Positions 1 to 57,717 of a stretch of DNA of 64,000 nt are shown here, piece after piece. The DNA is from an uncultured Candidatus Saccharibacteria bacterium (GTDB taxonomy: Bacteria > Patescibacteriota > Minisyncoccia > UBA6257 > 2-01-FULL-56-20), in assembly GCA_964365185.1 (NCBI GenBank), contig CAYIOP010000001.1:34675-98674 (forward strand). Reading direction: 5' to 3'. The stretch's first letter is position 1, and every line of letters begins with the position of its first letter. The position numbers and the translations under genes are program-made. The notes beneath the pieces were generated by a model. It worked only from the letters and a program-made list of their open reading frames with translations. It was not told the origin of the DNA and ran no database searches.

Positions 1-353
1 TTTTAAAAGAAGTTATCGGTTGCAGACATAAAGAGGAGTGTAATCATACCTGTAGCGGCGCTTTTAAAGTTACTGAATTTGAATTAAATTTTTATAAAGA
101 TTTTAATATTCCCTTGCCTAATCTTTGTTCAAATTGCCGGCATTTTGAACGATCAGAGGAGATGACTCCGATGAAACTTTTTAGCGGGCATTGTAATTGT
201 TTGGGTGAGAAGTCCACCGGCGGAATTTATCAAAATCAGGTCAATCATTTTCACGGCAAAGAGAAATGTCCGAATGAGTTTGAAACGAGTTATAGTCCAG
301 ATCAAGGAAAAATTGTGTATTGCAAGGAATGCTACCAGCAAGAAGTAGCATAA
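1..353 (+). CDS. Cys-rich zinc-ribbon family protein, 3' fragment (5' end lies outside window)
   Basis: The frame is open from nt 3 to the stop at 351-353. The translation GCRHKEECNHTCSGAFKVTEFELNFYKDF.IPLPNLCSNCRHFER...HFHGKEKCPNEFETSYSPDQGKIVYCKECYQQE matches the C-terminal A'-B' zinc-ribbon pair of the 13175..14977 family (LCSNCRHYERL...HCPNEFETTYAP...IIYCEECYQQEII). Confidence 0.6.
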   Translation, partial: LKEVIGCRHKEECNHTCSGAFKVTEFELNFYKDFNIPLPNLCSNCRHFERSEEMTPMKLFSGHCNCLGEKSTGGIYQNQVNHFHGKEKCPNEFETSYSPDQGKIVYCKECYQQEVA

Positions 354-356
354 AAT

Positions 357-387
357 TAGAATCTAGGATTGAGAATATAGATTATAG
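357..387. repeat. heptad-periodic TAG repeat (TAG at 357, 364, 378, 385; GAG at 371)
   Basis: Read directly in the sequence: tagaatc taggatt gagaata tagatta taggtgg, starting immediately after the stop codon of the upstream + gene. Confidence 0.5.
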
Positions 388-439
388 GTGGCGAAATTTA
401 AATTTCTTTTTCTAAATCCTATATTCTAAATTCTGTATC

Positions 440-946
440 CTAATTTTTTTTCGTGCGTTCCAGAAAATCTTTGAGTGATTTAGGGGAGCTCGCAAAATGG
501 AGTAGGATGCCGAAAGTCGCGCCTAGAGTGACTGAGAGTAAGAGGTCGTTGTGTTCTCTAATTAGAAGGTAATCAACCAAGGCGTAGAGTGAGAGCGTAG
601 TGATTAAAAGTACAGTGAGACCGATGGTTTTTAAGCCAGCCACTGTTTTTTTGGCGCTGAAAAGAATAAGAGTGATTAAACTTGAAGCAAAGGCCAACCA
701 GAGATTAAATCCCTGGAAAATTGGGTTATTAGGGAAGCCGACGCTCGTGAACATTCCGGCTTTATAAACTACGATTATCGCCACTAAAATTACTCCTCCC
801 CAAAATCCGGCTTTAATGGATTTTACCTCTTTAACAAAATCCGGATCTTTGGCGGTTTGTTTGGTGGTCAAGACAATAACTAAAAGAATAAACGGCACTA
901 TGACCCAGATGATGAGGTTGAACAAAAAATCCAGGGTTTTAGGCAT
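440..946 (-). CDS. hypothetical integral membrane protein (4-5 predicted TM helices)
   Basis: 168-aa ORF with strongly hydrophobic segments and no recognisable catalytic motif. Confidence 0.4.
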   Translation of the reverse strand: MPKTLDFLFNLIIWVIVPFILLVIVLTTKQTAKDPDFVKEVKSIKAGFWGGVILVAIIVVYKAGMFTSVGFPNNPIFQGFNLWLAFASSLITLILFSAKKTVAGLKTIGLTVLLITTLSLYALVDYLLIREHNDLLLSVTLGATFGILLHFASSPKSLKDFLERTKKN

Positions 947-1101: not shown

Positions 1102-2922
1102 ATGCCTAAATTAAGACCAGATGTAGTTTATTTCGCCAGAACGGATTTTAGGAATACTAAGCGGCTTTTTGGAATTAAACGTAAGGATCGTCGGCAACAC
1201 AACTATGTGGTTGGTAAGACCGGAACCGGTAAAACAGCGTTGATTCATAATATGGTGGTTCAGGATATTACCAATGGCGAGGGGGTCTGCGTGGTCGACC
1301 CTCACGGTGAGTTTGTGGAGAGTTTGCTCGCAAAAATCCCGGAAGAGCGGATTGATGATGTTATTTATTTTAATCCGGCGGATATTGACCATCCAATTGG
1401 GTTCAACCCGCTTGAATTGCCAGACCCTAAATACCGACATTTGGCCGCATCGGGGTTGATGGCGATTTTTACGAAAATTTGGTCTAATGTTTGGTCGGCT
1501 CGGATGGAATATATTTTAAACAACGCAATTTTGGCGCTTTTAGAAAACTCTAATTCAACTTTACTTGGGATAAATCGGATTTTAGTGGATAAAGATTTTC
1601 GTCAAAAGATTGTGGCGAATGTTAAAGACCCGGTGGTCAGGGCTTTTTGGATTAATGAATTTGAGGCCTGGAGAGATCAGTTTAGGAATGAGGCCATTGC
1701 TCCGATTCAAAATAAAGTGGGTCAGTTTTTGTCAACGGATTTAATTCGAAACGTGGTGGGGCAGACCAAAAGCACGATTGATGTTTTTGACATTATGAAT
1801 AATCGAAAGATTTTTCTAGTTAATGTTTCCAAAGGTAGAATTGGTGAAGACAATTCCGCGCTTCTGGGGGCGATGTTGATTACTAAAATTCAACTGGCTG
1901 CGATGGAGCGAGTTCGAATTCCGGAAGAGGAGCGGGCTGATTTTTATCTTTACGTGGACGAGTTTCAAAATTTCGCGACCGATTCTTTTGCGGGAATTTT
2001 GTCGGAAGCCAGAAAATACCGATTAAATTTAATTATTGCCCATCAATATGTCGGTCAGTTAGTGACAGATGTTTCAACTAAGGTTAGAGACGCGGTTTTC
2101 GGTAACTGTGGAACAATGATGGTTTTTAGAGTTGGCGCCACTGACGCCGAATTTTTGGAAAAAGAATTTACACCGGAATTTATGATTGAGGATTTGGTAA
2201 ATTTACCCAATTACGCAATTTACCTTAAATTAATGGTGGATGGCGTGACTTCCCGGCCTTTCTCGGCCGCGACTTTACCACCGTTTAAGATTCCAACTTC
2301 AGCCGTCACAATCGAGCGGGTAGTTGATATTTCTCGATTAAATTATACTTTGCCCAAAGAGGAGGTTGAGGAGGCGATAATTAAGTGGAGTGGCAGTATG
2401 GGCGATTCAGATTCTGGCAGTATAGAGAGGAGAGGTGAAAATGTTTTGGCGGCGGGACATAAAGTTCAGGCCACTTGTTCTTCTTGTGGTAAGCGAACTG
2501 AATTAAATTTTATTCCCACTGAGGGCCGGGCGGTTTATTGTAAAGATTGTCTCCAGAAAATTAAATCCGGAGAGATGTCTAGGGTTAAGGTGGGGAAAAT
2601 TAAAGAGTTAAGGCCGTCTGAGAAAGACCCGTCGGATTTGGCGTTTTTGGGCATTGAATTTAAACAATCGAAGCCGGAAGAAAAGAGGGAAGATGGTTTT
2701 GAACAAAAATCTGGACTGGCAGCGCCACCGACAAAAGAAACTTCTGAATTCCACGAAATTTCGCGGTCAACCGAACCAAAGATTTCCTTAAGTGAGCTTA
2801 AACAAGTGGATACAGTGCCGAGAGACAAGAAATCAGACCAAGTTAGTATTGATGAGTTGAGAAAGTCCATCGAACGGGCGCTTGAAAGCCAAAGCGAATC
2901 AAGTCAAGAGGGGAACGAATGA
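1102..2922 (+). CDS. DUF87-type P-loop NTPase (HerA/TraD/VirD4-like) with long low-complexity C-terminal tail ending in a zinc ribbon
   Basis: Walker A is [10 protein letters not shown], followed by a DPHGEF motif, a Walker-B-like [10 protein letters not shown], then AHQ. The C-terminal [25 protein letters not shown] is the B-type zinc ribbon of the Cys-rich family. The stop overlaps the trmD start (ATGA at 2919-2922). Confidence 0.7.
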
Positions 2923-3605
2923 AAATAAAAACCAAATCCGGAAAAATTCGGTTTGACGCCATTACGATTTTCCCTAAAATATTCGATTCTTATTTGAAAG
3001 AATCGCTTTTTAAGCGCGCTTTGGCGAATAAATTAATTGAATTTAAAGTTTGGAATCTTCGAGATTTTACGCAAGACAAACATCATAAAGTTGATGATCG
3101 GCCGTTTGGGGGCGGGCCGGGAATGGTTTTAAAAATTGAGCCGATATATCGGGCAGTATCGTTTTTAAGCGAAAAACGAAAAGCGAAAAGCGAAAAGTTG
3201 AAAATCAGGGTTATTTTGTTTTCAACAAGAGGAAAAAAGTTAGATGTTAAAATGGCGCGGCGACTTTTGAGTTATGATCAGTTGATTTTAATTTGTGGCC
3301 GGTATGAAGGAGTAGATGAAAGAGTGGTGAGATATGTAGTGGATGAAGAAATTTCAATCGGGGATTATGTTTTATCTGGAGGTGAATTGCCGGCTTTGGT
3401 TTTAGTGGAAACGGTAGCTCGTTTAATCCCCGGTTTTCTCGGAAAATATGAATCCCTTGAGGATGTTAAGGGATTTTATCCGGTTTACACTCGGCCCGGA
3501 GATTTTAAACCGGAGGGGAAAATAAAATTTTTGAGCGCGCCAAAAATTCTTTTGTCTGGAGACCATAAGAAAATAAAAGCGTGGCGGGATAAATTTAACA
3601 ATTAA
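2919..3605 (+). CDS. trmD: tRNA (guanine37-N1)-methyltransferase TrmD
   Basis: Contains [22 protein letters not shown] and [17 protein letters not shown], the SPOUT-fold motifs of TrmD. It also carries an in-frame KRKAKSEK insert encoded by a gaaaagc heptad repeat. Confidence 0.85.
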
Positions 3606-3771: not shown

Positions 3772-5199
3772 ATGTTTAAATCGCAGATTGTGACTTTTGC
3801 GGGAGTGTTTTTACTAATCGGTATTTTTGCCGCTTCTTCAGGATGGAGTTTTTACGGGACGAGTTTTTTGATACTTATTTTTCTTTTTGCGTTTTTTTGG
3901 TATAAGAAGAGAGAAAAATTTTATAAGGGAATAGCGCTAATTTTTATTTTTTTCGCTCTCGGATTTTTTTATTATCATTTTTTTACCAATTTTTTTGAAG
4001 TTAGAACCAAAGTAATTTTTAATCAGGAAATCGAATTTGTCGGAAAAGTGGTGAGCGATCCGCGTTTTTTTGAAAATACTCAAGTGTTTGATTTAAAACT
4101 TCAAGAATCTGATCAAGGCACAGTTGTGGTTTTATTGCCTTTGTCGCCGAAATTTGAATATGGCGACCAAGTTAAATTTAATGGAAAAATTGAAAGAGGC
4201 GTGGATAGACGAACTAAACCAACAGTTTTTTTTCCGGACGCGAATTTACTTCAAAAACATCAAGGTTTTTGGGTTAAGGAAAAACTTTTGCGTTTTAAAG
4301 CAGTCCAGCTGGCTCAATTTCGGCGATTTTTATCTCGCGATCAGGCCGCGCTTTTAGCTGGTGAAACCTTTGGTTTTCGAGGAGATTTTACCGAAGAATT
4401 GAAATCGGCGATGAATTTAAGCGGCACTACGCATATCGTGGCTCTTTCTGGATATAATATCGCTATTTTGGTTTTGGCGATTCAAAAAACACTCACCAAT
4501 TTTATGTCTAGGAAAAAGCGATTTTGGCTGATTATTTTGGTAATTCTGCTTTTTTTAATTATGGTTGGGGGTGAGGCGTCGGTGGTGCGGGCGGCGCTCA
4601 TGGGTTTCCTCGTGCTTTTGGCAAGAGAAGCGGGAAGGCCTTACGATGTTTTTCGGGCGATTATTTTGGCGGCGGTATTGATGGCGATACTTAATCCCAA
4701 TATTTTACACTACGACGTTGGCTTTCAACTTTCTTTTTTGAGTTTGTTAGGGTTAGTTTATCTTGAGCCAGTAGTGTCGAAATTTTTTAAAGTCCAAGAT
4801 AAACCCCCAAGTTTTTTAAGCTGGCGGGAAAATGGAATCATTGCGCTTTCGGCCCAGTTGGCTGTGGCGCCGATTATAATTCAAAATTTCAACCAATTCT
4901 CTTTAACTTCCATTTTTAGTAATATTTTAATTTTGGAAGTCGTTCCTTTGGCCATGTTTTTCGGTTTTTTAATTGGAACTCTTGCTTCAATTTGGAGCGT
5001 GTTGGGATTTCTCGCCGCAAAATTTACGGCAGTGATTTTGGCGTATCAGATATGGGTTATTAAATTTTTTGCCGGTATACCTTGGTTTATAGGCGGTCAG
5101 TTTTTCCCTAAATTTTTTTTAATCGGATATTATTTGATTTTGGCGTCTAGCGTATTTTTCTATTATTATGGAAAAAAGAAAGGAACAGGCTTCGGTTAG
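3772..5199 (+). CDS. comEC: ComEC/Rec2 competence channel, N-terminal and competence domains
   Basis: Polytopic membrane protein with NLSGTTHIVALSGYNIAIL, the ComEC competence-domain signature. The MBL domain is encoded by the separate next ORF. Confidence 0.7.
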   Translation: MFKSQIVTFAGVFLLIGIFAASSGWSFYGTSFLILIFLFAFFWYKKREKFYKGIALIFIFFALGFFYYHFFTNFFEVRTKVIFNQEIEFVGKVVSDPRFFENTQVFDLKLQESDQGTVVVLLPLSPKFEYGDQVKFNGKIERGVDRRTKPTVFFPDANLLQKHQGFWVKEKLLRFKAVQLAQFRRFLSRDQAALLAGETFGFRGDFTEELKSAMNLSGTTHIVALSGYNIAILVLAIQKTLTNFMSRKKRFWLIILVILLFLIMVGGEASVVRAALMGFLVLLAREAGRPYDVFRAIILAAVLMAILNPNILHYDVGFQLSFLSLLGLVYLEPVVSKFFKVQDKPPSFLSWRENGIIALSAQLAVAPIIIQNFNQFSLTSIFSNILILEVVPLAMFFGFLIGTLASIWSVLGFLAAKFTAVILAYQIWVIKFFAGIPWFIGGQFFPKFFLIGYYLILASSVFFYYYGKKKGTGFG

Positions 5200-5216: not shown

Positions 5217-6083
5217 ATGAACCAAAAAAATAATTTAAGTTTGATAATTTTTTTAATTTTGATTGTTTTTAATTTAGGAAGTTGGTATTTAGTGTTTTTT
5301 TCAAATGCCTCAAGTGAATCCGGGATTTATTTTTTAGATGTCGGTCAGGGCGATAGCAGTTTGCTTAAATTTGGTGGAGCCGAGATTTTGATTGACGCGG
5401 GCCCAAATTCAAAAGTAATTCAGTCGTTAGGGGCGAAGATGTTGGGGGATAAGTATATTGATTTAGGAGTAATAACTCATCCGGAACTAGACCATTTCAA
5501 TGGATTTAATTATCTTTTGAGCCGATATAATTTTGGGGCTTTTATAATTAACGGTCGGAGAGGAAGGACGGCCGAGTGGTCCGAGTTTTTAGCGGCGGCC
5601 GAGACCCATCAGATTCCAGTTTTAACTTTAGGAGCTGGGGATAAAATTTCTTACAATGATAATGAATTTAAAATTATTTCTCCAAGTGTTCAAGTTTTGG
5701 GTACTGGAGCGATGAATGATACCAGTTTAGTCGGCAAATTAGAAACTAGAAATTTTGGAGCTTTATTTTTAGGCGATATTAGCGAGAGTATTGAAAAATT
5801 TCTAATTCAAAATTATGAGCTTGAATTTCTGCGGGTTGAAGTTCTTAAGATTGCCCACCATGGCTCAAAATTTTCATCCAATAACGATTTTTTAAAAACC
5901 GTAGCGCCGAAAATCGCGTTAATTGGAGTGGGGGCAAGCAATACTTATGGTCATCCGACGCCTCAGACGCTTGAGCGGCTTACTAATTTGGAAGCTAAAA
6001 TTTTTCGAACTGACTTAGATGGAACAATTGTTATTCGGGAAATTGATGACAAATTAAAGGTTTTTTTGGGCATAGAGCAATGA
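5217..6083 (+). CDS. Metallo-beta-lactamase-fold protein (ComEC C-terminal domain as separate ORF with own N-terminal TM helix)
   Basis: FLDVGQGDSSLL, ILIDAGP, HPELDHFNG, AHHGS and TYGHP are MBL motifs typical of the ComEC C-terminal domain. The ORF starts 18 nt after the comEC stop. Confidence 0.7.
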   Translation: MNQKNNLSLIIFLILIVFNLGSWYLVFFSNASSESGIYFLDVGQGDSSLLKFGGAEILIDAGPNSKVIQSLGAKMLGDKYIDLGVITHPELDHFNGFNYLLSRYNFGAFIINGRRGRTAEWSEFLAAAETHQIPVLTLGAGDKISYNDNEFKIISPSVQVLGTGAMNDTSLVGKLETRNFGALFLGDISESIEKFLIQNYELEFLRVEVLKIAHHGSKFSSNNDFLKTVAPKIALIGVGASNTYGHPTPQTLERLTNLEAKIFRTDLDGTIVIREIDDKLKVFLGIEQ

Positions 6084-12688: not shown

Positions 12689-12690
12689 AT

Positions 12691-12721
12691 TAGGTTTTAG
12701 GTTTTAGGTTATAGGTGATAG
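12691..12721. repeat. heptad-periodic TAG repeat: TAG at 12691, 12698, 12705, 12712, 12719 (exact 7-nt spacing)
   Basis: taggttt taggttt taggtta taggtga tag, read directly. It follows the TAG stop of the M23 peptidase gene and places stops in all three frames. Confidence 0.55.
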
Positions 12722-13174: not shown

Positions 13175-14977
13175 ATGAATCGGGAAATTCGAAATTGCCA
13201 AAATTGCAAAACTAATTTTGAAATAGACGCTTCGGATTTTAAATTTTATGAAAGGATAAAGGTTCCGCCGCCGACGTGGTGTCCGGAGTGTCGGATAGTT
13301 CGGCGAATGTCGGTTCAGAATCAACGGGCTTTATATAAACGAAAATGTGATTTGTGCGGAAATGAAATGGTAACTTTTTTCTCGCCAGAGGCGCGAGATA
13401 CTGTTTATTGCCAAAAATGTTGGTGGTCGGATAATTGGGACCCGTTTCAATATGGGCTGGAATATGATTTTTCCAAACCGTTTTTCGCTCAATTTAGAGA
13501 ATTATTAGATAGAGTTCCGTGGTCAGCGCTCCAGACAGTTTATACCACGATGGTAAATAGCGAGTATTGCAATATCGCTTCCTATCTAAAGGACTGTTAT
13601 TTAATGTTTAACTCTGATTACAGCGAGGATTGTTATTATGGAACTTATGTGGAACGGAGTAAGCGTTCATTTGATCTTTATATGGCTGACTACGCGGAGA
13701 TTTGTTACGAGAGCAATAATTTAGAGAAATGTTATCACGTTTTTTATTCGAGTAACTGCAATAATTGCATCGATGTTTATTTTTCAAGAAATTTGCGAGG
13801 TTGCTCGAAGTGTTTTGGTTGCGTTAATTTATCCAATAAACAGTATTACATTTTTAATGAGCCCTATTCCAAAGAAGAGTATTTTAGAAAATTGAAACAA
13901 TTCGATTTGGGGTCAAGAAAGACGGTTTTAGAATTACGTCAGCAGATGGCCGACTTTAATCTTAAATTTCCAAGAAAATTTGCGGAAGGATTTAAGAATT
14001 TAAACGTCTCGGGAGATTATGTGTTTAATTCCAAAAATACTTATTTGAGTTATGAAATGGCCGAATCCGAAGATTGTAAATTTTGCCAATTTCTTTTTAT
14101 TGAAACCGCGAAGAATTGTCAAGATGTGACGATGTGGGGTGGGGGACTTACCAACTCTTATGATTCAATGGGTATTGGCGGAGGAGCGGACCAGATTAAA
14201 TTTTCTTTTGATTGTTGGGCAAATCTTATGAATATTGAGTACTGTTTCGATCTTTTGGTTATGAACTCAGACCTTTTTGGGTGCAGCCGATTGAAAAATA
14301 AAAAATTCTGTATTCTAAATAGGCAGTATTCTGAGAAAGAATATAATGATTTAATTCCGAAAATTAAAAAACAAATGGATGAAGTGCCTTATATCGATAA
14401 GAAGGGCCGAGTATATAAATATGGAGAGTTTTTCCCGCCTGAAATCCACTCTTTTGCTTATAATGAAACAATCGCACAGGAATATTTTCCATTGACTAAG
14501 GAAGAAGCTATAGACCAGGGTTTTCGTTGGAAAGATGCTCAAGATAAGAATTATCAAATTACGATTTCAAGCGACCAGTTGGCGGATAATATTAAGGAAG
14601 TTGAGGATGGAATTTTAGGCCAGATAATTGGCTGCGAACATTTTGGTAAGTGCAAAGATCAGTGCTCAGTGGCGTTTAAAATTACTCCTCGAGAATTGGA
14701 ATTTTATAGGGCCGAGAATATCCCAGTGCCTCGATTATGTTCGAATTGCCGGCATTACGAGCGATTAAGGAATAATAATCCTATGAGATTTTATCATCGC
14801 AGGTGTGGGTGTGAGGGGTTGCAAAGCGTAAAGAGCAAGGCGCAAAATAGTTATCAAAACGTGGCTCAACATTTTCATGGCGGCGATCATTGCCCCAATG
14901 AATTTGAAACAACTTACGCGCCGGAGAGAAGAGAAATTATTTATTGCGAGGAATGCTATCAACAAGAAATAATATAG
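13175..14977 (+). CDS. Cys-rich zinc-ribbon family protein (pseudo-symmetric A-B-core-A'-B')
   Basis: N-terminus CQNCKTNFEIDASDFKFYERIKVPPPTWCPECR (A), then KCDLCGNEMVTFFSPEARDTVYCQKC (B). The core has repeated C..C.NC and CFGCVNLSNKQYYIFNEPYSKEEY units. The C-terminus repeats A' (ITPRELEFYRAENIPVPRLCSNCR) and B' (HCPNEFETTYAPERREIIYCEECYQQE). Confidence 0.6.
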   Translation: MNREIRNCQNCKTNFEIDASDFKFYERIKVPPPTWCPECRIVRRMSVQNQRALYKRKCDLCGNEMVTFFSPEARDTVYCQKCWWSDNWDPFQYGLEYDFSKPFFAQFRELLDRVPWSALQTVYTTMVNSEYCNIASYLKDCYLMFNSDYSEDCYYGTYVERSKRSFDLYMADYAEICYESNNLEKCYHVFYSSNCNNCIDVYFSRNLRGCSKCFGCVNLSNKQYYIFNEPYSKEEYFRKLKQFDLGSRKTVLELRQQMADFNLKFPRKFAEGFKNLNVSGDYVFNSKNTYLSYEMAESEDCKFCQFLFIETAKNCQDVTMWGGGLTNSYDSMGIGGGADQIKFSFDCWANLMNIEYCFDLLVMNSDLFGCSRLKNKKFCILNRQYSEKEYNDLIPKIKKQMDEVPYIDKKGRVYKYGEFFPPEIHSFAYNETIAQEYFPLTKEEAIDQGFRWKDAQDKNYQITISSDQLADNIKEVEDGILGQIIGCEHFGKCKDQCSVAFKITPRELEFYRAENIPVPRLCSNCRHYERLRNNNPMRFYHRRCGCEGLQSVKSKAQNSYQNVAQHFHGGDHCPNEFETTYAPERREIIYCEECYQQEII

Positions 14978-15051
14978 ACAAACATTCTGAAGTCCGGCCA
15001 TAGCTTAAGCGACGGTGGACGAACAATGTTATAATGCAGAAGTAGCATAAA

Positions 15052-15088
15052 TAGAATCTAGAATTTAGAAAATAGAAGGTAGTAAGTG
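15052..15088. repeat. heptad-periodic TAG repeat (TAG at 15052, 15059, 15066, 15073, 15080)
   Basis: tagaatc tagaatt tagaaaa tagaagg tagtaag, read directly in the spacer between the Cys-rich gene and murC. Confidence 0.55.
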
Positions 15089-15146: not shown

Positions 15147-16541
15147 ATGACTAAAAAAGAGCACTCCCCTAACTTAAATAGAGTTCATTTTGTTGGTATT
15201 GGCGGCATAGGAATGAGTGCTCTGGTACGTTGGTTTTTAGCTAAAAAATGGCTTGTATCGGGCTCTGATCTAGTAGAAAGCCAGATTACTGATAGTTTAA
15301 GAAAAGTTGGCGTAAGGGTCAAAATTGGCCATAAAAGAGTTAATTTACCTCAAAATGGCCTTAAGATGGTTGTTTATAGCCAAGCCATTCACCATGACAA
15401 CCCAGAATTGCTTGAGGCGCGAAAATTGGGCATTATTCCTCTTTCATATGGGGAGGCAGTCGGGTGTCTTACAAAGATTTATAAAACGATTGCCATTGCC
15501 GGTAGTCATGGCAAAAGTACGACTACGGCTTTAGTTGGAATTGTTCTCTCGGCGGCGAAGTTCGACCCGAATGTGATTTTAGGCACTAATCTTAAAGAAT
15601 TTCACGGAACTAATTTTAGGCAAGGACGATCAAGGTGGCTGGTTTTGGAGGCGGATGAGTGGAAGGCCTCTTTCTTAAATTATTTTCCTTTTATAACCGT
15701 GGTTACTAATATCGATAAAGAACATCTGGATTATTACAAAACCTTTGGCAACGTCAAAAAGACATTTCTTAAATTTTTAGGTAATACCGAAGATGGCGGA
15801 TTTTTGATTTTGAATCGCGACGACAAAATTTTATTTTCGCTCCAGTCCTCTATTTTAAAATTGACAAGACAGAAAAAATTGAAAGTTCATTGGTATTCAG
15901 TGAGTAAAACTCAAAGTGAAAAACGAAAAGCGAAAAGTTTAGGGAAGATTTTAAAAATTTCGGGCGAGCATAATATTTCAAATGCGATGGCGGCTTTCAC
16001 TGTGGCTAAAGTTTTGAGAATTAAAGAGTCGATTGCAACTGGGGCACTCGCTAATTTTCAAGGAGCGTGGAGAAGAATGGAGTATAAGGGCAAATGGCAA
16101 ATAGCAAATAGCAAATCAATTTTAGTGTTTGACGATTACGCTCATCATCCCACGGAGATTCGAGCAACACTTCGGGCTTTTCATGAAAAATTTTCGACTT
16201 CTCCGATTGTTTGTGTTTATCAGCCGCATCAGGCCGAACGACTTAAGAATTTATTTTCGGAGTTTGTGGACTCATTTTTAGATGCGCATGTTTTAATTTT
16301 TTTGCCGGTTTATGAAGTGGCGGGCCGCGATCGGGTGAATCGCGGTTTTACCTCAGAACGATTGGCCAAAGCGATTGCCAAGAAATATTCTCGAAAGCAC
16401 GTGTATTATCTAAAAAATCCAAAGCTTTTGAAGGGATTTTTGAGGCATATCGTGGAGCATTTTGGCTTTACCCACTCCCCTATTTTGGTGATGATGGGCG
16501 CGGGAGATATTGTTAAATATACTCCTCTCTTGTTATCATAG
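15147..16541 (+). CDS. murC: UDP-N-acetylmuramate--L-alanine ligase MurC
   Basis: VHFVGIGGIGMSAL (Mur ligase N-terminal Rossmann loop), IAGSHGKSTTT (P-loop) and HHPTE. Two in-frame heptad-repeat inserts give KRKAKS and KGKWQIANSKS. Confidence 0.8.
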   Translation: MTKKEHSPNLNRVHFVGIGGIGMSALVRWFLAKKWLVSGSDLVESQITDSLRKVGVRVKIGHKRVNLPQNGLKMVVYSQAIHHDNPELLEARKLGIIPLSYGEAVGCLTKIYKTIAIAGSHGKSTTTALVGIVLSAAKFDPNVILGTNLKEFHGTNFRQGRSRWLVLEADEWKASFLNYFPFITVVTNIDKEHLDYYKTFGNVKKTFLKFLGNTEDGGFLILNRDDKILFSLQSSILKLTRQKKLKVHWYSVSKTQSEKRKAKSLGKILKISGEHNISNAMAAFTVAKVLRIKESIATGALANFQGAWRRMEYKGKWQIANSKSILVFDDYAHHPTEIRATLRAFHEKFSTSPIVCVYQPHQAERLKNLFSEFVDSFLDAHVLIFLPVYEVAGRDRVNRGFTSERLAKAIAKKYSRKHVYYLKNPKLLKGFLRHIVEHFGFTHSPILVMMGAGDIVKYTPLLLS

Positions 16542-16547
16542 TTTTCT

Positions 16548-17318
16548 ATGGATTTTTATAAGGATGAGAATGCGTTTAAAGAGGTCTCCGGTTATACAAT
16601 TGATGGTGTTTGGTATCCCCGGGTGACCAAGATCGTAAGTATTAAGGCTAAGCCGGCCTTACTTTATTTTTATGGTGAGGCGGCAAATTATAAAGCGGGC
16701 CTGTCTTTTACTCAAAAATCCGCGGTGGAGGGAACTTTGGTTCACAATGCGATTGAAAATTTGCTTTTAAACAAACAAGAAGAAGTAGATCCTTTAATTG
16801 CGCCGGCAATTGTGGCCTTTAAGATTTTTTGGGAGAGTAAAAATATTCAAGTGACGCCAGATTTGGTTGAGCGTCGGGTGGTGAGTTTTGACCATCGTTA
16901 TGCCGGCACAGTTGACGCCATAGCTTTAATTGACGGCAAGTTAGGGGTACTGGACATTAAAACCTCACAGGCGATTTATCGTGACTATAATATTCAGACC
17001 GCGGCTTATATGGCCGCCTTAAAGAACCAATTTCAGAATCTTCAGACGCGGTGGATTTTAAGAGTGGATCAGATCCAGACCTGTCAGAGTTGCGGCTCTC
17101 GCAAGCGAACCAAGGGCGGCCGAGAGAAAATTCGACCAGTGAACGGTCAATTTACGGCGATGAGAAATTGTCCGGAGCATGAATGGTCGGAAGTTGCTGG
17201 CGAGATTGAATTTAAGGAATTCCCCTACTGGCAGACGGATTTCGAAGCTTTTCTGGCGGCTAAAAAACTTTGGGAGTGGGAGAATGAAAATTGGTTGAAT
17301 AAAATAGGTTACTTATGA
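16548..17318 (+). CDS. hypothetical PD-(D/E)XK-like nuclease-fold protein with C-terminal Cys/His cluster
   Basis: GTVDAIALIDGKLGVLDIKTS fits the D...D/ExK core. The C-terminus is CQSCGSRKRTKGG...NCPEHEW. Family assignment is weak. Confidence 0.3.
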   Translation: MDFYKDENAFKEVSGYTIDGVWYPRVTKIVSIKAKPALLYFYGEAANYKAGLSFTQKSAVEGTLVHNAIENLLLNKQEEVDPLIAPAIVAFKIFWESKNIQVTPDLVERRVVSFDHRYAGTVDAIALIDGKLGVLDIKTSQAIYRDYNIQTAAYMAALKNQFQNLQTRWILRVDQIQTCQSCGSRKRTKGGREKIRPVNGQFTAMRNCPEHEWSEVAGEIEFKEFPYWQTDFEAFLAAKKLWEWENENWLNKIGYL

Positions 17319-17336
17319 AAATATTTTTATTTTAAG

Positions 17337-17450
17337 GACCGGCGTCGTGATTGCTCCAGCGGCAATCACACGCCTGCATCTCCTTCGTTGGACTTCGCTA
17401 AAACGGAGACCGAGCTCTAACTTCAGTCCGATAGTTCCTTAAAATAAAAA
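17337..17450 (+). ncRNA. GC-rich structured element (candidate small RNA or attenuator), strand uncertain
   Basis: Sharp G+C island in an AT-rich 730-nt intergenic region. Perfect hairpin gtgattgc-tccagcg-gcaatcac, plus a second helix ggact...agtcc. The whole block is flanked by ttttaagga ... tccttaaaa complementary arms. Confidence 0.2.
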
Positions 17451-17692
17451 TATTTTCTATCGCTATTTTATTTGAGCGGCTTGGGGATAAGAAAAGTGTT
17501 TTTGATTTAAAATTTCTGTGCTATAGTAGAGGAAATGTCGGTTGATGATTCGAATTATAAAAAAGAAAGTCGCAGTTAGCGAAATTCAAGGTTAGCTTGA
17601 AGGACTCGCATAGCGGAGTTCTTTTTATTTTTCATCCGGCCGGATGAAAAATAATCCTGAGGAAATTGAAGGATTATCTTAAATTTTAACCA

Positions 17693-21087: not shown

Positions 21088-21610
21088 AAAAGAAGAAAAA
21101 ATCTTGAGGCAAAGAACTCAAGATTTTAAGTTTTTGAAGAAAGGCTTGGTGATTGGCCGAGATGAATTTTCGTTTAGAGAACTTGATGATTTAATTCGAA
21201 AGATGCGGAGAATAATGAAGGAGGCCAGCGGCGTGGGGCTAAGCGCTAATCAGGTCGGTCTTCCCTATCGGATGTTTGTGGCGGAGGTTCTGGATGCTGA
21301 CGGTAATTTGAAGTTTTATGCGATTTTTAATCCTCGGCTTGAATTTTCTGGTAAGGAGAAGGCAAAGATGGAAGAGGGGTGTTTGAGCGTGCCTGGGAAA
21401 TACGGTTTTGTGGAGCGAGCTACCAGCGCGAAATTAACTGGATTAGATAAGCGTGGCCGAGCCCTTAGAATCAAGGCCTGGGGATTTTTGGCGCACGTAT
21501 TTCAGCATGAGGTGGACCATTTAGATGGTAAGCTTTTTATTGATAGAGCCAAAGAAATTTATGATATACCAAAAGTTGACGAACGTTTAGCTGCTAAATA
21601 TCGAAAATGA
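21056..21610 (+). CDS. def: Peptide deformylase
   Basis: The three PDF motifs are present: GVGLSANQVG, EGCLSVPG and HEVDHLDG. Confidence 0.85.
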   Translation: MDEKILVIQNKKEEKILRQRTQDFKFLKKGLVIGRDEFSFRELDDLIRKMRRIMKEASGVGLSANQVGLPYRMFVAEVLDADGNLKFYAIFNPRLEFSGKEKAKMEEGCLSVPGKYGFVERATSAKLTGLDKRGRALRIKAWGFLAHVFQHEVDHLDGKLFIDRAKEIYDIPKVDERLAAKYRK

Positions 21611-22470
21611 AATTTGTTTTTTTTGGAACGCCGGAATTTGCTGAAATTGTTTTAGATAAATTAATTCAAGGCGGTTATATTCCGTCGGCGGTAATTTGTA
21701 ATCCAGACAGGCCAGTTGGCAGAAAAAAGATTATCACTCCCCCGCCGGTGAAGACGCGAATTATGAATTATGAATTAGGAATTAAGAATCAAATTAAGAT
21801 TTTGCAACCAGAGAAATTAAATCCTTCATCATTCTCGATTCATGATTCTTTATTCGATTTATTTGTCGTGGCGGCTTACGCTAAGATTATTCCAGCGGAG
21901 ATCTTAAAAATTCCGCGTCTTGGGGTAATCGGGGTTCATCCATCACTCCTGCCTAAGCATCGAGGGCCATCGCCGATTCAGTCAGTGATTTTAAACGGCG
22001 ATAAGGAGACAGGCGCTGCTCTGTATTTGATGGACGCTTTGGTGGATCATGGGCCGATTTTAGAAAGTCGAAAGTTGAAAATAGAAAGTAGAATAAATTA
22101 TTTAGAACTCGAGAGGCAGCTGGCGGAGTTAGGAGGAGACTTATTGGTTGAAGTGTTGCCAAAATTTGTTGAGGGAGAAATCAAGCCCGAGATTCAAAAT
22201 GAGGATGAAGCAACTTTCACCAAGAAATTTACCACTCAAGACGCGTTTGTGAATTACAGTGATTTACTCGAGGCGGAGAATGGTGATTTCAATTTAGCTT
22301 TAATGATTGACCGAAAAATTCGGGCTTTTGTGGCGGAGCCGGGTGCCTGGACGATTCGAGATGGGAAGCGAGTTAAACTTTTGGAGGCGGAAATTGTGGG
22401 AGTGAATTTACGGCTTAAGAAAATTCAAGTTGAGGGAGAGAGGCCGAAGATGGTAGAAAATAGTAAATAG
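21607..22470 (+). CDS. fmt: Methionyl-tRNA formyltransferase
   Basis: MKFVFFGTPEFA and GVHPSLLPKHRGPSPIQ (formyltransferase SLLP motif). It follows def with a 4-nt overlap. Confidence 0.85.
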   Translation: MKFVFFGTPEFAEIVLDKLIQGGYIPSAVICNPDRPVGRKKIITPPPVKTRIMNYELGIKNQIKILQPEKLNPSSFSIHDSLFDLFVVAAYAKIIPAEILKIPRLGVIGVHPSLLPKHRGPSPIQSVILNGDKETGAALYLMDALVDHGPILESRKLKIESRINYLELERQLAELGGDLLVEVLPKFVEGEIKPEIQNEDEATFTKKFTTQDAFVNYSDLLEAENGDFNLALMIDRKIRAFVAEPGAWTIRDGKRVKLLEAEIVGVNLRLKKIQVEGERPKMVENSK

Positions 22471-22500: not shown

Positions 22501-24207
22501 CTATATAATTTCTTTTAAGTAGCATTCCTTGCATAGAATTTCTTTGTAGTCCTCTAGGGTATAGCTGCTTTGGAATTTACTTTGGCATTTAAAACAGGTT
22601 CGTTCCACTAAAGTTAAATCTTTCACCCAGTCCTGGAATTTTTTTTCAATTCGGCAAAAGGGACATTCGCGCGGCAGAGGTAGATTCATTTGTTTTAGGA
22701 AGTCGAGTTCGGACTGAATGATTTTGAAGCCGCGGTCGCATTTAGCGCAACCAATAATTTCATTTAAAATATCGCGTGGAGCGTCTTTGATATGATCCGG
22801 AAGATGTTCCGATTTAATTGAGATTTGATGATTTTTGGGTTCGCTTTCTTTCCATGCGTAGCCGGCATTTAGTGTTTGTTCTTTTGTAAGCGGAAAAAAA
22901 TTATTGGCCATAGTTTCATTATAGGCCCAAGGACTCATCTCGATTGGGAAAAACTCGCCGTATTTATAAATTTGTCCGCGGCTGTTTTTATAAGGCATCT
23001 CATTCATATGATTGATAATTTTTTCACGGAGTTGCCAATATTCCTTTTCCGGATATTTTTTGTTGAAAATCACAAATTTTCCTTTCTTGAGCGATGAACA
23101 GGCAAAGTAGTTAGCGCCGCCAAGCACGGTATTGCAGTATTCGGCGTCGATTAAATTAATTCCACTTTGAGTGGAAAACTTTACTCGATGAGCTCCTTCT
23201 CCGGTTACGCTTACTTCGTAGCAGAGTTCCATATTGTTGCCCCAACTGGTGATATCATAGCAATTCTTAATGGGTGCAACGGCGAGCATAAATAAATATT
23301 TAGAATCAATCGCTCCGGCGACCTCGTAGCACTCCTTACAATTTTTGGACTCAAAAACATAATTGCCGGTACAGTTCGTCACAAATTCCGAACAATATGG
23401 CAGAGGCGGATGTTTTTGCCAATTTTCTTCACTCAATTTTTGAGCCAGTTTATAGTTTTGATACGAGCCCAAGTCGAATTCTTTTAATTTTTTAGCATAT
23501 TCCTCTGGGGTATATTTCTGATTGAAAAATACATACTTTTGATTTCTAAGATTGGTCGAGCCAAAACAATTTTGGCAATTTGCGGAGTCCCGAAGAAAAT
23601 GGCAGTTAAGCGATTCAGTAACCTGCTTACGCAGGCCAACGCACCGGTTATTTTTGAAAGAATGTTCGCAGTCGTAGCAGAGTTCGGAGTGACTAATAAG
23701 TGATGAATCGAGCGTATTTTTGGAGTTAGTGACGTAGAAGCCATAGCTGCAATCTTCACTGAAGTCGGCATGAAACAGGAGGTAGCAATTTTTGAGATTG
23801 CCAACATGATTGTTGTATTCGGAGTTGATCATCGTGGGCAAGGCATTCGAGAGTCCGATGGTCGGTACTTCCAGCCAAAATTTCTTTAATTGCTCAAAGA
23901 AGGGTTGATTAAAGTCATAGTCGCGGCTATATTCATAAGGGTCCCAGTCATCAGACCACCAACATTTAGGGCAGTAGATTTTATAAAGGGACTCTGGAGA
24001 AAACATGGAAAGAGAGTTTTTGCCGCAAAGATCGCATTTCCGCTTGTAAATTTTTAAAAGATTAAAAAAAGCCAGGCGCCTTTGAAAGCGGCACTTGGGA
24101 CAAAAAGTCGGTGGCGGGACTTCAATTTTTTGGTAGAAATTAAAGTCCTCGGGTTCGATGGTGAATTCAGATTTGCAATCTTGACAAATCTTTGTTTCTG
24201 AATTCAT
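22501..24207 (-). CDS. Cys-rich zinc-ribbon family protein (tandem array member 1)
   Basis: MNSETKICQDCKSEFTIEPEDFNFYQKIEVPPPTFCPKCRFQRR at the N-terminus. Internal NCQNCFGSTNLRNQKYVFFNQKYTPEEY, and a C-terminal CPFCR...YKEILCKECYLKEII zinc-ribbon pair. Confidence 0.6.
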   Translation of the reverse strand: MNSETKICQDCKSEFTIEPEDFNFYQKIEVPPPTFCPKCRFQRRLAFFNLLKIYKRKCDLCGKNSLSMFSPESLYKIYCPKCWWSDDWDPYEYSRDYDFNQPFFEQLKKFWLEVPTIGLSNALPTMINSEYNNHVGNLKNCYLLFHADFSEDCSYGFYVTNSKNTLDSSLISHSELCYDCEHSFKNNRCVGLRKQVTESLNCHFLRDSANCQNCFGSTNLRNQKYVFFNQKYTPEEYAKKLKEFDLGSYQNYKLAQKLSEENWQKHPPLPYCSEFVTNCTGNYVFESKNCKECYEVAGAIDSKYLFMLAVAPIKNCYDITSWGNNMELCYEVSVTGEGAHRVKFSTQSGINLIDAEYCNTVLGGANYFACSSLKKGKFVIFNKKYPEKEYWQLREKIINHMNEMPYKNSRGQIYKYGEFFPIEMSPWAYNETMANNFFPLTKEQTLNAGYAWKESEPKNHQISIKSEHLPDHIKDAPRDILNEIIGCAKCDRGFKIIQSELDFLKQMNLPLPRECPFCRIEKKFQDWVKDLTLVERTCFKCQSKFQSSYTLEDYKEILCKECYLKEII

Positions 24208-24316
24208 TTTATTTTTTCCGAAATAAATTTGAGAGGTGATTTTTAAGTAGGGTCCAAAAAGCCCCTACGATAAGCTTAATAGTTCTAATGCGTATTTTGA
24301 TACTTGGATTCATGGA

Positions 24317-26107
24317 TTATTGAATTTCACCTTGATAGCATTCGGAACAGTAAATTATTTCAGGATCATTGTTTGAGTAGCTGGTCATAAATTTATTTTG
24401 ACACTTTGTTTCGCCATGAAGATGGGCGGTTCGATTTTCGTATATTATCTCTCCAGTTGAGTTTTCTGAAGTTCTTCCGCCACACATACAAAATTTTTCA
24501 GATAGATTATAGCGTTCTCGGCCGTTATTTCTGATATGGCGTCGGCATTCGGGGCAAAGTCGCGGAAGGGCGACGTTAATCATTCGGTAGAACTCCAGTT
24601 CCTTGGGAACGATTTTGAAAGCTCTTTTGCATTGGTGGGCACAATCTCCTCTATGAGAGCAGTTGATAATTTTTTCTAATATTTTGTCGTCCGTGTTTTT
24701 TATGTTATCCGGCAGATCTTCGGGATTTATGGTGTTCGCGTAGGTTTTTAGTTCCGCGTCTCGCCACCAAAGTTTTTGTTTTTGAGCTTTTTCTTTGGTG
24801 ATCGGGAAATAGCGCTGAGCTAAGGAGTTATTGTAGGCGCAGGTTGAAAATTCCGGCGGGAAGAATTCGCCGTACTTGTAAATGTGGCCAAGTTCGTTGA
24901 TGTAGGGTGTTTGCTTCATTTGTTCTATAATCTTCGGCACTATTTTTTCATATTCTTCCTTCGTGTATTGTTTATTTAGAATGCAGTACTTTTTTTTTCT
25001 TAACCCAACGCAGCCGAAAAGATGTTCGCATGATTGGCAAGTATCGCAGTATTGTAAATCTAAGCTTTCTCTGGCGCCGTTGGTGAATCTGATGTTTTGG
25101 GAATTAAACGCGCTGCTGGCGTAGATAAGCTCGCATTTTTCGCCTCCAGCGAAGACGTCGTAGCTGTCTTTGATTCTTCGGCCGCAGATTAGGAGATATT
25201 TGCTGTTTTCCGCGCCGTCTCTAACTTCGAAGCTATGCTGACAGTTTTTGGCGTTTTCGATGTCGTTGCCGGTGCAACCAACGGTGTTTTTTTCCGCCAT
25301 ATACTTTCTTGGGATTTTCGATTTAAGTTTTTCGAATTCTTTTTTGGCATCTTTTAAAGTTTTATGACTACCGAGATTTAGCTCCGACATTTTTTTTTCA
25401 TATTCTTTTTTGGAGTAGGGTTGATTGAAAATATGATATTGTTTGTTTCGTAAACCGACGCAGCCGAAACAGTTGGAGCAATTTCGGCAGTCGTAGAGAA
25501 ATTTTGAATCTAAACATTCATTGCATTGTTCAGAAAATAAAAGATTGAAACAGCGAGTACAAGAACAGGATTCATACATGTTTTCGCAAAAAATTAATAT
25601 TGAGACGTCAATGCATTTGCGGCTTACGGCAGGCGTGTCTGAATACATGCAGTCTTCAGAGAGATAGGCTCCGGAGACGAGGTAACAATTTTTTGAGTTT
25701 GAGGCCCAGGTGCAGTAATCGCAGTTTATTGAGTTAATTGAACGTACATTCGCTAAAGGAACAGAGTTTAAGAGTTTTAGAAATTGCTCGAAAAAGGGCT
25801 TTGAAAAATCGTAGTCGAGGCCATATTCGGTCGGATCCCAGGCATCGGACCACCAATAGTCGGAATCGTATATTTTGAGTCCTCTTTCCGAAGGATATCT
25901 AGAAATGAGTTCTTCGCTGTGGCCGGGTGCCTGGCATTTGACGCGGAAGAGCGCACCTTCATTCGACCAAATGAGTTTATGCATCATTCGGCACTTAGGA
26001 CAAAAAGTCGGCGGTGGGACTTTAATTTTTTCGTAGAAAGCGAAGTCATCGGGTTCGATGGTGAAAGTTGATTTGCAGTTTTGGCAAATTCGCGAATCTT
26101 GAGTCAT
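24317..26107 (-). CDS. Cys-rich zinc-ribbon family protein (tandem array member 2)
   Basis: MTQDSRICQNCKSTFTIEPDDFAFYEKIKVPPPTFCPKCR at the N-terminus. Internal CFGCVGLRNKQYHIFNQPYSKKEY and CEHLFGCVGLRKKKYCILNKQYTKEEY, and a C-terminal CPECR...IIYCSECYQGEIQ. Confidence 0.6.
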   Translation of the reverse strand: MTQDSRICQNCKSTFTIEPDDFAFYEKIKVPPPTFCPKCRMMHKLIWSNEGALFRVKCQAPGHSEELISRYPSERGLKIYDSDYWWSDAWDPTEYGLDYDFSKPFFEQFLKLLNSVPLANVRSINSINCDYCTWASNSKNCYLVSGAYLSEDCMYSDTPAVSRKCIDVSILIFCENMYESCSCTRCFNLLFSEQCNECLDSKFLYDCRNCSNCFGCVGLRNKQYHIFNQPYSKKEYEKKMSELNLGSHKTLKDAKKEFEKLKSKIPRKYMAEKNTVGCTGNDIENAKNCQHSFEVRDGAENSKYLLICGRRIKDSYDVFAGGEKCELIYASSAFNSQNIRFTNGARESLDLQYCDTCQSCEHLFGCVGLRKKKYCILNKQYTKEEYEKIVPKIIEQMKQTPYINELGHIYKYGEFFPPEFSTCAYNNSLAQRYFPITKEKAQKQKLWWRDAELKTYANTINPEDLPDNIKNTDDKILEKIINCSHRGDCAHQCKRAFKIVPKELEFYRMINVALPRLCPECRRHIRNNGRERYNLSEKFCMCGGRTSENSTGEIIYENRTAHLHGETKCQNKFMTSYSNNDPEIIYCSECYQGEIQ

Positions 26108-26130
26108 AGATGATTTTTGTTTTTTTGATA

Positions 26131-26162
26131 CTATTCTCTAATTCGCGCGAATTAGAGAATAG
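26131..26162. repeat. 32-nt perfect palindrome between array members 2 and 3
   Basis: ctattctctaattcgc|gcgaattagagaatag, read directly. It is preceded on the + strand by a T-run. Confidence 0.5.
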
Positions 26163-26181
26163 TTGGATAGAAGCGCCTTAA

Positions 26182-27834: not shown

Positions 27835-27836
27835 AT

Positions 27837-35636: not shown

Positions 35637-35667
35637 TAGGTGATAGGTTTTAGGTTTTAGGTGGCAG
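35637..35667. repeat. heptad-periodic (T)AGG repeat between secD and secF
   Basis: tagg tgatagg ttttagg ttttagg tggcagg, with TAG at 35637, 35644, 35651 and 35658. Confidence 0.5.
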
Positions 35668-36913: not shown

Positions 36914-37207
36914 TGAGATTAGGTTTAAGGTGGCAGGTTATGGGTGATAGGTTGCTACGAAAGTTGGAATTTATTAACGATACGATTATAAAGGAAGGCG
37001 CTTAAATTGTAAACTCCTCTGAATAAGAGTTTTGTGAGTAATTTTTTTCTAGAGAGAAAGGTCTAAGTTAGAAAATTATTTATAAAACTTGATCGTTTTA
37101 TTTTTCGAATAGTGCCATTTTTATTTGAGTGGAATGAAATAAAAAAACGGGATGTAAATTTCTTTACATCCCGCAATATAATGAATGTGGTTTGTCGTCC
37201 GTGGGCG

Positions 37208-37607: not shown

Positions 37608-37647
37608 GCCTCCGCGCCACTATGACATGTCATAGTGGCGCGGAGGC
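37608..37647. repeat. 40-nt perfect palindrome (20+20, no loop) in GC-rich intergenic block
   Basis: gcctccgcgccactatgaca|tgtcatagtggcgcggaggc, read directly. It is followed by a second hairpin, gaccgc-atatatc-gcggtc, at 37649-37667. Confidence 0.6.
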
Positions 37648-52232: not shown

Positions 52233-52306
52233 TACGCCCACCAGGATTTGAACCTGGGACCATCTCCTTAAAAGGGAGCTGCTCTACCGGGCTGAGCTAT
52301 GGGCGC
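52233..52306 (-). tRNA. tRNA-Lys (anticodon UUU)
   Basis: Minus-strand cloverleaf: acceptor GCGCCCA/TGGGCGT, D-arm GCTC-AGCCCGGTA-GAGC, anticodon stem-loop GCTCC-CTTTTAA-GGAGA (U33, TTT, A37), T-arm CCAGG-TTCAAAT-CCTGG, discriminator A. CCA is not encoded. Confidence 0.7.
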
Positions 52307-57710: not shown

Positions 57711-57717
57711 TACAGTA

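Follow-up and report, generated by a model that had tools for sequence, protein, structure and literature searches.

Simple sequence repeats (SSRs) with a unit of seven nucleotides are over-represented in many bacteria, and a hypothesis based on the footprint of the polymerase has been put forward for them (PMC4692102). Examples given in that article are GGGAATC in Xanthomonas and GGGGA(T/C)T in Nostoc, both cited from Mrazek et al. 2007, and the STRR heptamers of heterocystous cyanobacteria. Other heptamers have been described as TAACTGA direct repeats in Beggiatoaceae, cyanobacteria and Bacteroidetes (MacGregor 2015, PMC4679880), and as a tandem repeat of variable copy number (VNTR) of 5'-AAGACTC-3' in the neuO gene of the Escherichia coli K1 prophage CUS-3 (PMC13001214). 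Heptamer repeats are known mostly from between genes. The arrays presented here lie within trmD and murC, essential genes of streamlined genomes in which a change by one unit causes a frameshift. They are found in a 64-kb stretch of contig CAYIOP010000001.1 (hereafter the window), which is the part of the source genome covered by this analysis. The main result is that the TrmD and MurC orthologs of Patescibacteria carry heptad arrays at the same sites as the window, made of different units.

No paper linking heptamer repeats to Patescibacteria or to the candidate phyla radiation (CPR) was found in the literature searched. Nor were heptad arrays at orthologous hot spots of essential Patescibacteria genes described in the same literature, with subscription journals outside its coverage. 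The arrays are considered to belong to a known class, in a coding form within essential genes that is provisionally without description in the literature searched.

Heptad arrays in trmD and murC

The trmD gene (2919-3605, + strand) encodes a tRNA (guanine37-N1)-methyltransferase of 228 residues (Pfam PF01746, tRNA m1G methyltransferase, E=2e-45), and murC (15147-16541, + strand) a UDP-N-acetylmuramate--L-alanine ligase of 464 residues that comprises the three Mur ligase domains (PF01225, PF08245, PF02875). Both proteins are full-length members of their families, as judged from the Pfam profiles and from the solved chains 4ypw_A (E=2e-52) and 1gqq_A (E=7e-71) of the PDB. The invariant columns of the catalytic core are retained in both (alignments A1 and A2).

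The trmD array, (aagc) GAAAAAC GAAAAGC GAAAAGC GAAAAGT, spans positions 3167-3198 of the + strand, with full units at 3171-3198. It was detected with Tandem Repeats Finder (TRF; period 7, 4.4 copies, 91% matches) and in a period scan, and encodes the peptide S84-EKRKAKSEK-93. Two arrays are present in murC, both on the + strand. Array 1, (aaagt) GAAAAAC GAAAAGC GAAAAGT, spans 15913-15938 (full units 15918-15938; TRF period 7, 3.6 copies) and encodes S257-EKRKAKS-264. Array 2, GCAAATG GCAAATA GCAAATA GCAAATC, spans 16086-16117 (full units 16090-16117; TRF period 7, 3.9 copies, 95% matches) and encodes G-KWQIANSKS. The positions and letters of these three arrays were given exactly in an earlier reading made from the sequence alone (the sequence-only reading). 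It had also described a KRKAKS-type insert in both genes; the two GAAAAGC arrays do start at codon position 1, and each yields SEKRKAKS.

Three independent assemblies, obtained from replicate samples of one well, contain identical arrays without gaps. The arrays are not an assembly artefact, since independent replicate-sample assemblies carry them identically. Proteins identical to those of the window are encoded on contigs from replicate 0.1-um samples of the Hainich groundwater well H43. The names of the organisms from which homologs originate (Minisyncoccia, Liptonbacteria, Paceibacterota) place the organism in Patescibacteria. The closest of the 7999 TrmD homologs scored, which are from Patescibacteria, are ~70% identical, and the nearest MurC relatives ~66%. 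The window thus belongs to a Patescibacteria bacterium of the Parcubacteria/Paceibacteria type from Hainich groundwater, with a guanine-plus-cytosine (GC) content of 40%.

Directly upstream of trmD, positions 1102-2922 encode a TrwB/TraG-like coupling ATPase whose C-terminus carries a treble-clef zinc finger; the stop codon of its gene overlaps the start of trmD. The related locus L205 (4041-6681) has the same gene order, TrwB-like, trmD, comEC.

Orthologous sites with other units

A peptide of nine residues that can be encoded by a perfect heptad repeat specifies exactly one unit. Heptad-encodable nine-residue segments numbered 14 among 120 TrmD homologs and 26 among 120 MurC homologs; 20 shuffles of each set gave none. 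In TrmD, they cluster at residues ~75-85, which is the site of the window array, and at residues ~187-204. In MurC, the clusters are at residues ~253-263 (window array 1), ~308-326 (window array 2) and ~410-443. Many MurC homologs have, at both window sites, strings of seven residues that back-translate to perfect 7-nt repeats, such as VSGVRCQ (GTGTCAG) and IQNSKFK (ATTCAAA).

In the DNA of relatives, perfect arrays of 31-33 nt made of other units occupy these positions: L205 and L208 have them at the TrmD site, L207 at both sites of MurC. The TrmD-encoding DNA of L205 has (AAATTCG)4.7 and (GGCAAAT)4.7, that of L208 has (AAAGTCA)4.7, and (AAAAATC)4.5 occupies both sites of the L207 murC. Seven different units are found at MurC site 2 in L121, L124, L127, L129, L135, L136 and L152. 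The loci L205 and L207 are syntenic with the window.

Some arrays of relatives occur in inverted pairs. In the murC of L121 (4942-5030), four units of ACGTATC/ATGTATC are followed ~45 nt further on by an inverted copy (GGATACA/GGATACG), all in frame, and the pair encodes a long β-hairpin extension. Inserts of 23-35 residues at the hairpin site of several MurC homologs look similarly palindromic. In L155, an inverted pair of heptad arrays lies just downstream of murC (5358-5452).

Enrichment of period 7

Period 7 is the sole tandem period enriched in the window. With a threshold of at least three copies, five arrays have period 7 and none has period 5, 6 or 8-15; no such array appeared in 30 first-order Markov shuffles. 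A more lenient scan of the window returned nine arrays of period 7, against 3, 1 and 1 of periods 5, 6 and 11, and none of periods 8, 9, 10 and 12. Five of the nine are coding (one in trmD, two in murC and two in fmt) and four are intergenic. The fmt gene (21607-22470; methionyl-tRNA formyltransferase, PF00551/PF02911) is the third housekeeping gene with heptad arrays in its coding sequence. Its first array, GAATTAT x4.6 (21758-21789, + strand), and its second, more degenerate one of the GAAAGTC/TAGAAAG type (22063-22093, + strand), were returned by both TRF and the period scan.

In the loci of relatives, the numbers of arrays at periods 5 to 10 were 3, 6, 23, 0, 6 and 0. Seventeen period-7 arrays were counted in ~150 kb around the 20 closest MurC loci, compared to six in ~400 kb around 60 more distant ones; the excess therefore tracks the lineage. 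The trmD and murC arrays have the features of heptanucleotide SSRs: at least three head-to-tail copies of a 7-nt unit beyond what is expected by chance (4.4, 3.6 and 3.9 copies by TRF, none in shuffles), and a period that stands above the others within the 64-kb window and in related loci. Regarding polymorphism of unit number, the window arrays are the same in the three assemblies, and consensus sequences of relatives have three versus four units at the orthologous murC site. The suggestion of the sequence-only reading that a heptad-specific process is at work holds in that period 7 alone is enriched in the window, that it is enriched in related Patescibacteria loci and that a length change of 7 nt is found at a murC site of a relative.

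Intergenic heptad arrays were noted at 12690-12721, 15052-15077, 35637-35662, 36916-36946 and 57714-57746. Each of their units (TAGGTTT, TAGAATC, reverse-complement TGATACC) contains a stop triplet, which places stops in all three frames. They are situated 3 nt past the stop of an M23 peptidase gene, directly upstream of the start codons of secD and secF, and upstream of murC and hrcA. In L207, arrays are present at syntenic intergenic spots (2521-2553, 5232-5248) with other units that still contain TAG. Between convergent genes at 352-447 of the window, a 53-nt imperfect palindrome (75% complementary) has arms of heptad units of the TAGAATC/TAGGATT types and may be a terminator-like hairpin built from heptads. 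The only Rfam match over the window is a tRNA at 52233-52306, with no match at the arrays.

Length and structural setting of the encoded segments

At the array site, all Patescibacteria TrmD orthologs have a basic linker (alignment A1), which varies in length and conserves the motif KSxKLK. The segment of the window exceeds the commonest length in these orthologs by two residues and that of the solved chain 4ypw_A by five. At murC array 1, the window protein is four residues shorter than the solved chain 1gqq_A; at array 2, it is one residue longer. Both solved chains are presumably from Haemophilus influenzae.

In the alignment-based AlphaFold2 (AF2) model of TrmD, with a mean predicted local distance difference test score (pLDDT) of 75.9, the array corresponds to the C-terminal end of a helix (residues 73-88) and a loop (89-95) that precedes a β-strand (96-107). 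In the AF2 model of MurC (mean pLDDT 91.8), array 1 is within a helix (256-268) and array 2 forms a β-hairpin (312-319/323-330) at the boundary of the middle and C-terminal domains. Judging from alignments and models, the arrays appear to encode ordinary surface elements of near-usual length, and to overwrite existing segments rather than add to them, since the segments of orthologs and of solved structures at those positions are similarly long. The trmD and murC arrays had been proposed in the sequence-only reading to be lineage-specific insertions into otherwise conserved enzymes. This is contradicted by the orthologs and solved chains, the segments of which agree in length to within 1-5 residues. 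Moreover, the four units in trmD cannot be a simple in-frame insert, as 28 nt is not divisible by three. The earlier reading would have regarded the lysine-rich segment as ancestral if distant orthologs had it at the same place with different DNA. At the TrmD position, distant orthologs do have a basic segment encoded by different DNA, though this DNA often consists of a heptad array in its own right, with another unit.

A simple model of insertions of +21 nt was also discarded. The lengths at MurC site 2 peak at 10, 14 and 16 residues, and the solved homologs are nearly equal in length. Overwriting at roughly constant length is preferred because the lengths at this site do not go in steps of seven residues, and because of the lengths of the solved homologs.

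Turnover of the arrays in relatives

Three murC alleles from a single cluster at 90% identity have flanks that are 95-100% identical and, at site 2, three different arrays of 35 nt that align without gap: AAATTCA x5, [A/T]AATTCC x5 and an array of the AAACTAC type. The second of these, from L124, has a superperiod of 21 nt, its units being arranged a-b-c-a-b; this is expected if the survivors are steps of three units. The linker at the TrmD site has 16 residues in the window, P0119 and P0100, and 14 in P0047, with differing units.

Two relatives that are 2.8% divergent, L210 and L211, have murC genes that differ by exactly one unit, (AGAGTCA)3 and (AGAGTCA)4. The loss of 7 nt in the L210 gene (murC at 1501-2957; at 1417-2880 in L211) shifts the frame and results in two gene calls of 348 and 134 residues, on a single contig. 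The break is at the boundary of the middle and C-terminal domains. The split gene may be a dead allele, may encode a working two-piece enzyme or may result from a sequencing error. Taken together, these comparisons suggest that the arrays change rapidly in sequence while keeping their length, with an occasional slip by one unit.

Other length differences proved to be of a different nature. The split murC of L212 (cluster 3) is caused by a 2-nt deletion in a run of A. The variation in TrmD cluster 6 looks like a 6-nt repeat encoding KN, as judged from the peptide alone. P0295 lacks seven residues at a site that is not periodic, and several differences within the 90%-identity clusters are due to start-codon calls.

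Sharing of units between arrays

The trmD array and murC array 1 have an exact match of 20 nt, from 3171-3190 in trmD, which extends to 22 nt after the removal of one unit. With one internal unit removed, 26 of 27 positions agree, a stretch that runs from AAG[C/T] before the arrays to TT after them. No longer exact repeat exists between non-paralogous genes of the window. The 13-mer GAAAAGCGAAAAG, allowing up to one mismatch, occurs five times in the window, always within these two arrays, where 0.61 occurrences are expected; none of 100 shuffles reached five. With a 21-mer and up to three mismatches, the two loci are the only ones in the window (0.01 expected). The search for further GAAAAGC arrays called for by the sequence-only reading thus returned, within the 64-kb window, the trmD and murC loci only.

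Outside the window, GAAAARCGAAAAGCGAAAAG was scanned across 185,579 species genomes and gave at least 120 matches. Among the matches listed, GAAAAGC arrays are found in Acidobacteriota, Bacteroidota, Planctomycetota, Gemmatimonadota, Verrucomicrobiota, Patescibacteria and others; the longest measures 146 nt, and arrays of drifted units (AGCAAAA, AGCGAAG, GTGAAAA) frequently border them. Ten loci of Patescibacteria and one of Woesearchaeota, an archaeon, are, among those listed, in frame within long open reading frames (ORFs). These eleven mostly encode SEKRKAKSE or a cyclic permutation, and two, near the N-terminus of the ORF, are read on the opposite strand. Going by the peptides on either side, the host ORFs resemble a LeuRS, a CCA-adding enzyme, a DegT-type aminotransferase and a glycosyltransferase of family 2. 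In viral contigs, GAAAAGC x3 was found at 13 loci, and three control heptads of matched composition at 4, 22 and 11. The idea of GAAAAGC as a specially favoured or universal unit was rejected, the control heptads being about equally frequent. The many GAAAAGC matches therefore indicate that heptad SSRs are abundant in general.

Among coding arrays inferred from homologous proteins, two random arrays share their unit with a probability of 0.028. The DNA arrays of the window and of 25 related loci, a modest and partly ascertained sample, gave 5 same-unit pairs out of 77 within loci and 10 out of 1004 between loci (0.77 expected within loci, Poisson P=0.001). Without the trmD/murC pair, four were counted against 0.76 expected. 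Arrays in one genome thus tend toward common units. Units are likewise shared between the two murC sites of L207, between the L127 murC array and an inverted copy 3.9 kb away, within the inverted pair of L155 and within the intergenic TAGGTTT family, which has four loci in the window. This sharing echoes the genome-specific heptamer families of the literature.

The match between trmD and murC array 1 could have arisen in two ways. An independent origin of the two arrays from a restricted, genome-biased set of units is slightly favoured. Ectopic conversion or copying of one from the other is held to be possible, at less than even odds. Two variant bases are common to both arrays and constitute weak evidence of copying. 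In the first unit, AAG has become AAA, a synonymous GC-to-AT transition and one of only three synonymous transitions possible in the array. The last T is part of a conserved Leu codon in trmD and of a synonymous AGT in murC.

A proposed origin of the arrays

Given the excess of period 7, the orthologous hot spots, the alleles of equal length with different units, the allele with a one-unit deletion and the sharing of units within a region, all of which are observed, the arrays are best explained as coding heptanucleotide SSRs that misalignment in a 7-nt register would generate and keep homogeneous, with the reading frame and the protein fold acting as filters. A probability of about 0.68 is assigned to this explanation. 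We infer the misalignment itself, and the reason for the number seven. In this lineage, DNA synthesis or repair would misalign by preference in a 7-nt register. A transient misalignment that is then realigned would copy a unit onto its neighbour, yielding a periodic and homogeneous sequence of constant length, and misalignment without realignment would add or remove whole units (+/-7 nt). In essential genes, the changes that survive would be those that are neutral in length or involve three units (21 nt, seven residues), leaving the frame intact. As a peptide with a period of seven residues must also fit the fold, only a handful of permissive surface elements could retain arrays. The helix end and loop of TrmD and the helix and β-hairpin of MurC would then be fast-evolving cassettes of nearly fixed length in conserved enzymes.

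Several points weigh against this explanation. The slippage and conversion steps are deduced from the comparison of consensus sequences, and the organism of the window displays identical arrays in three assemblies. The lengths at MurC site 2, which are not seven residues apart, are not accounted for by simple gains of 21 nt. To build an array of four or five units from the unique sequence of an essential gene while avoiding lethal changes of +7 or +14 nt, a length-neutral route is needed, which is hypothetical. The 7-nt deletion of L210 may be an artefact of sequencing or of the library, or may represent a minority allele. Lastly, the sharing of units within a genome and the near-constant length of the arrays (~26-33 nt) would also fit a copy mechanism.

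Under such a mechanism, a small dispersed cassette or element would have been copied to give the arrays, or ectopic gene conversion or template switching would have produced them, with a direct common origin for those of trmD and murC. The agreement of these two at 26 of 27 positions with an indel of a whole unit, their common variant first unit GAAAAAC and their common 3' edge GAAAAGTT are as expected from it. So are the enrichment of unit sharing within genome regions (5/77 versus 1%), the same perfect (AAAAATC)4.5 array at both murC sites of L207, the L127 unit that recurs inverted, and the inverted pairs of heptad arrays in coding (L121) and intergenic DNA (L155; window 352-447), as well as, among the matches listed, the in-frame (GAAAAGC)n tracts of 23-33 nt, usually read as SEKRKAKSE, in unrelated ORFs of other Patescibacteria. 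However, the arrays have neither conserved termini nor a target-site duplication, dozens of different units are in use, and the positions are orthologous across lineages, with the local sequence being replaced and not added to. The two common variant bases, being a synonymous GC-to-AT change and part of a neighbouring Leu codon, can arise independently, and GAAAAGC x3 is no commoner than matched heptads in viral contigs. No structure like that of a Rickettsia palindromic element (RPE) or a miniature inverted-repeat transposable element (MITE) was found: the trmD and murC loci have 22-27 nt in common, the likeness ends at the edge of the periodic stretch, and the window holds no further copies. 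That units differ between orthologs also speaks against membership of such a family. Of the small inserting element imagined in the sequence-only reading, there remains that arrays of the same region share units above expectation. Dispersed copying is on balance unlikely. A bolder proposal merges it with misalignment: in Patescibacteria of the Parcubacteria type, copying in a 7-nt register, intrinsic to a polymerase or driven by an enzyme and perhaps acting between loci, would continuously rewrite fixed-length cassettes of essential genes and spread the units of a genome to several of its loci, the trmD and murC arrays deriving from one copying event. This is regarded as a rather improbable speculation.

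The proteins themselves offer another line of explanation, by which a basic KRKAKS patch is favoured in both enzymes, for instance for contact with RNA or a membrane, and the periodicity of the DNA is a by-product of codon choice. The linker of TrmD is indeed rich in Lys and Arg in all Patescibacteria orthologs, with KSxKLK conserved, and the array segments are modelled as regular secondary structure with a pLDDT of ~80-93. Nevertheless, selection on the protein does not require a 7-nt periodicity of the DNA, which synonymous codons would erase, yet perfect arrays of 31-33 nt exist, and the excess of period 7 reaches into intergenic DNA. No specific peptide is conserved, since orthologs use chemically different ones at the same sites (KFKIQNS, VSGVRCQ, LPPTPYR, FSIFNFQ). 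Selection for the patch is therefore judged very unlikely. It is highly improbable that the arrays act as contingency switches, with the unit number controlling phase variation of trmD and murC. The neuO gene provides a precedent in its coding heptanucleotide tract, ON only with a repeat count divisible by three (PMC13001214), and one relative has a murC allele frameshifted by the loss of one unit. Against this, the hosts are core housekeeping genes with 3-5 units placed mid-gene, compared to 3-53 repeats in the 5' region of neuO; trmD and murC themselves have 3-4 units, and no variants were seen in the three assemblies. A chance likeness of low-complexity, A-rich coding sequences might be invoked, the genome having a GC content of 40% and the codons of Lys, Glu and Ser being rich in A. 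Shuffles that preserve dinucleotides or follow a first-order Markov model give no such arrays or matches, and period 7 alone is enriched. Chance is hardly credible as a general explanation; it is refuted for the existence of the arrays and possible solely for the exact match between trmD and murC.

If this pattern of heptad arrays extends over the whole genome, conserved enzymes of Patescibacteria would hold predictable fast-evolving cassettes, which could mislead alignments, phylogenies and pseudogene calls in metagenome-assembled genomes (MAGs). Alleles of equal length with different units would provide a natural system that separates templated, length-neutral misalignment from ordinary slippage, and the sharing of units within a genome would bear on how heptamer families spread. 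The loci could be used for strain typing of uncultured groundwater bacteria.

Other features of the window

The replicate assembly L201 differs from the window only by 10 substitutions in 77 nt of comEC (4045-4121), mostly A to T, one of which makes a stop. This cluster has no relation to the arrays and is probably an error, with a coverage of 3. Four tandem paralogous ORFs of ~555-596 residues occupy 22501-29504 (- strand) and have repeated segments in common (families D1, D2 and D7). A perfect palindrome of 40 nt, with halves GCCTCCGCGCCACTATGACA and TGTCATAGTGGCGCGGAGGC, is at 37608-37647. A perfect inverted repeat of 22 nt (17317-17338 / 17436-17457), with a spacer of 97 nt, lies just past the ORF at 16548-17318. 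A motif of ~27 nt is present three times (328-354, 14952-14978 and 15025-15051) and encodes the C-terminal 'C..ECYQQE' of zinc-ribbon proteins. The third copy (15025-15051), intergenic and upstream of murC, just before the heptad array there, may be the remnant of a gene end.

Comparison with known repeat systems

Rickettsia palindromic elements are defined elements, conserved in sequence and ~100-150 bp long, that have inserted into protein-coding genes in frame. They resemble the present arrays in being short repetitive DNA that is tolerated in frame at the surface of housekeeping proteins, and the inverted pair of L121 similarly forms an extended hairpin. The arrays differ in having no conserved element, consisting instead of 20-35 nt of 7-nt periodicity with many units.

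Heptameric SSRs of bacteria, as they are presented in PMC4692102, are closer. In both cases, 7-nt units are arranged head to tail, period 7 is enriched and inverted pairs occur. Both vary in length and sequence at the same locus between close relatives, with slippage related to the polymerase footprint as the proposed cause. The GGGAATC, Nostoc and STRR families are, in the same source, mainly intergenic, with one or a few units specific to the genome. Unlike these families, the arrays of trmD and murC lie in frame in genes of essential enzymes, at orthologous positions, with many units and a near-fixed length. They do not form an intergenic, genome-specific heptamer family: they are coding, and the five coding arrays of the window use four units.

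The TAACTGA repeats are likewise direct repeats of a heptamer in 2-6 copies, scattered in the genome and sometimes located in ORFs, near the periphery of the protein (PMC4679880). They are the closest parallel to the intergenic, TAG-bearing arrays of the window, which also lie by start and stop codons. They consist, however, of one unit that in forward orientation provides stops in all frames, and are found mostly just upstream of start codons, whereas the arrays of trmD and murC are stop-free, coding and mid-gene. The VNTR of neuO shares with the latter the coding heptanucleotide unit, of which three copies encode seven residues. The frame is kept only by changes of unit number in multiples of three, and strand slippage is the mechanism (PMC13001214). 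Yet neuO is an accessory gene with 3-53 units at its 5' end, which operate as a true phase-variation switch, whereas the arrays described here have 3-5 units in the middle of essential genes and are stable in the sampled population.

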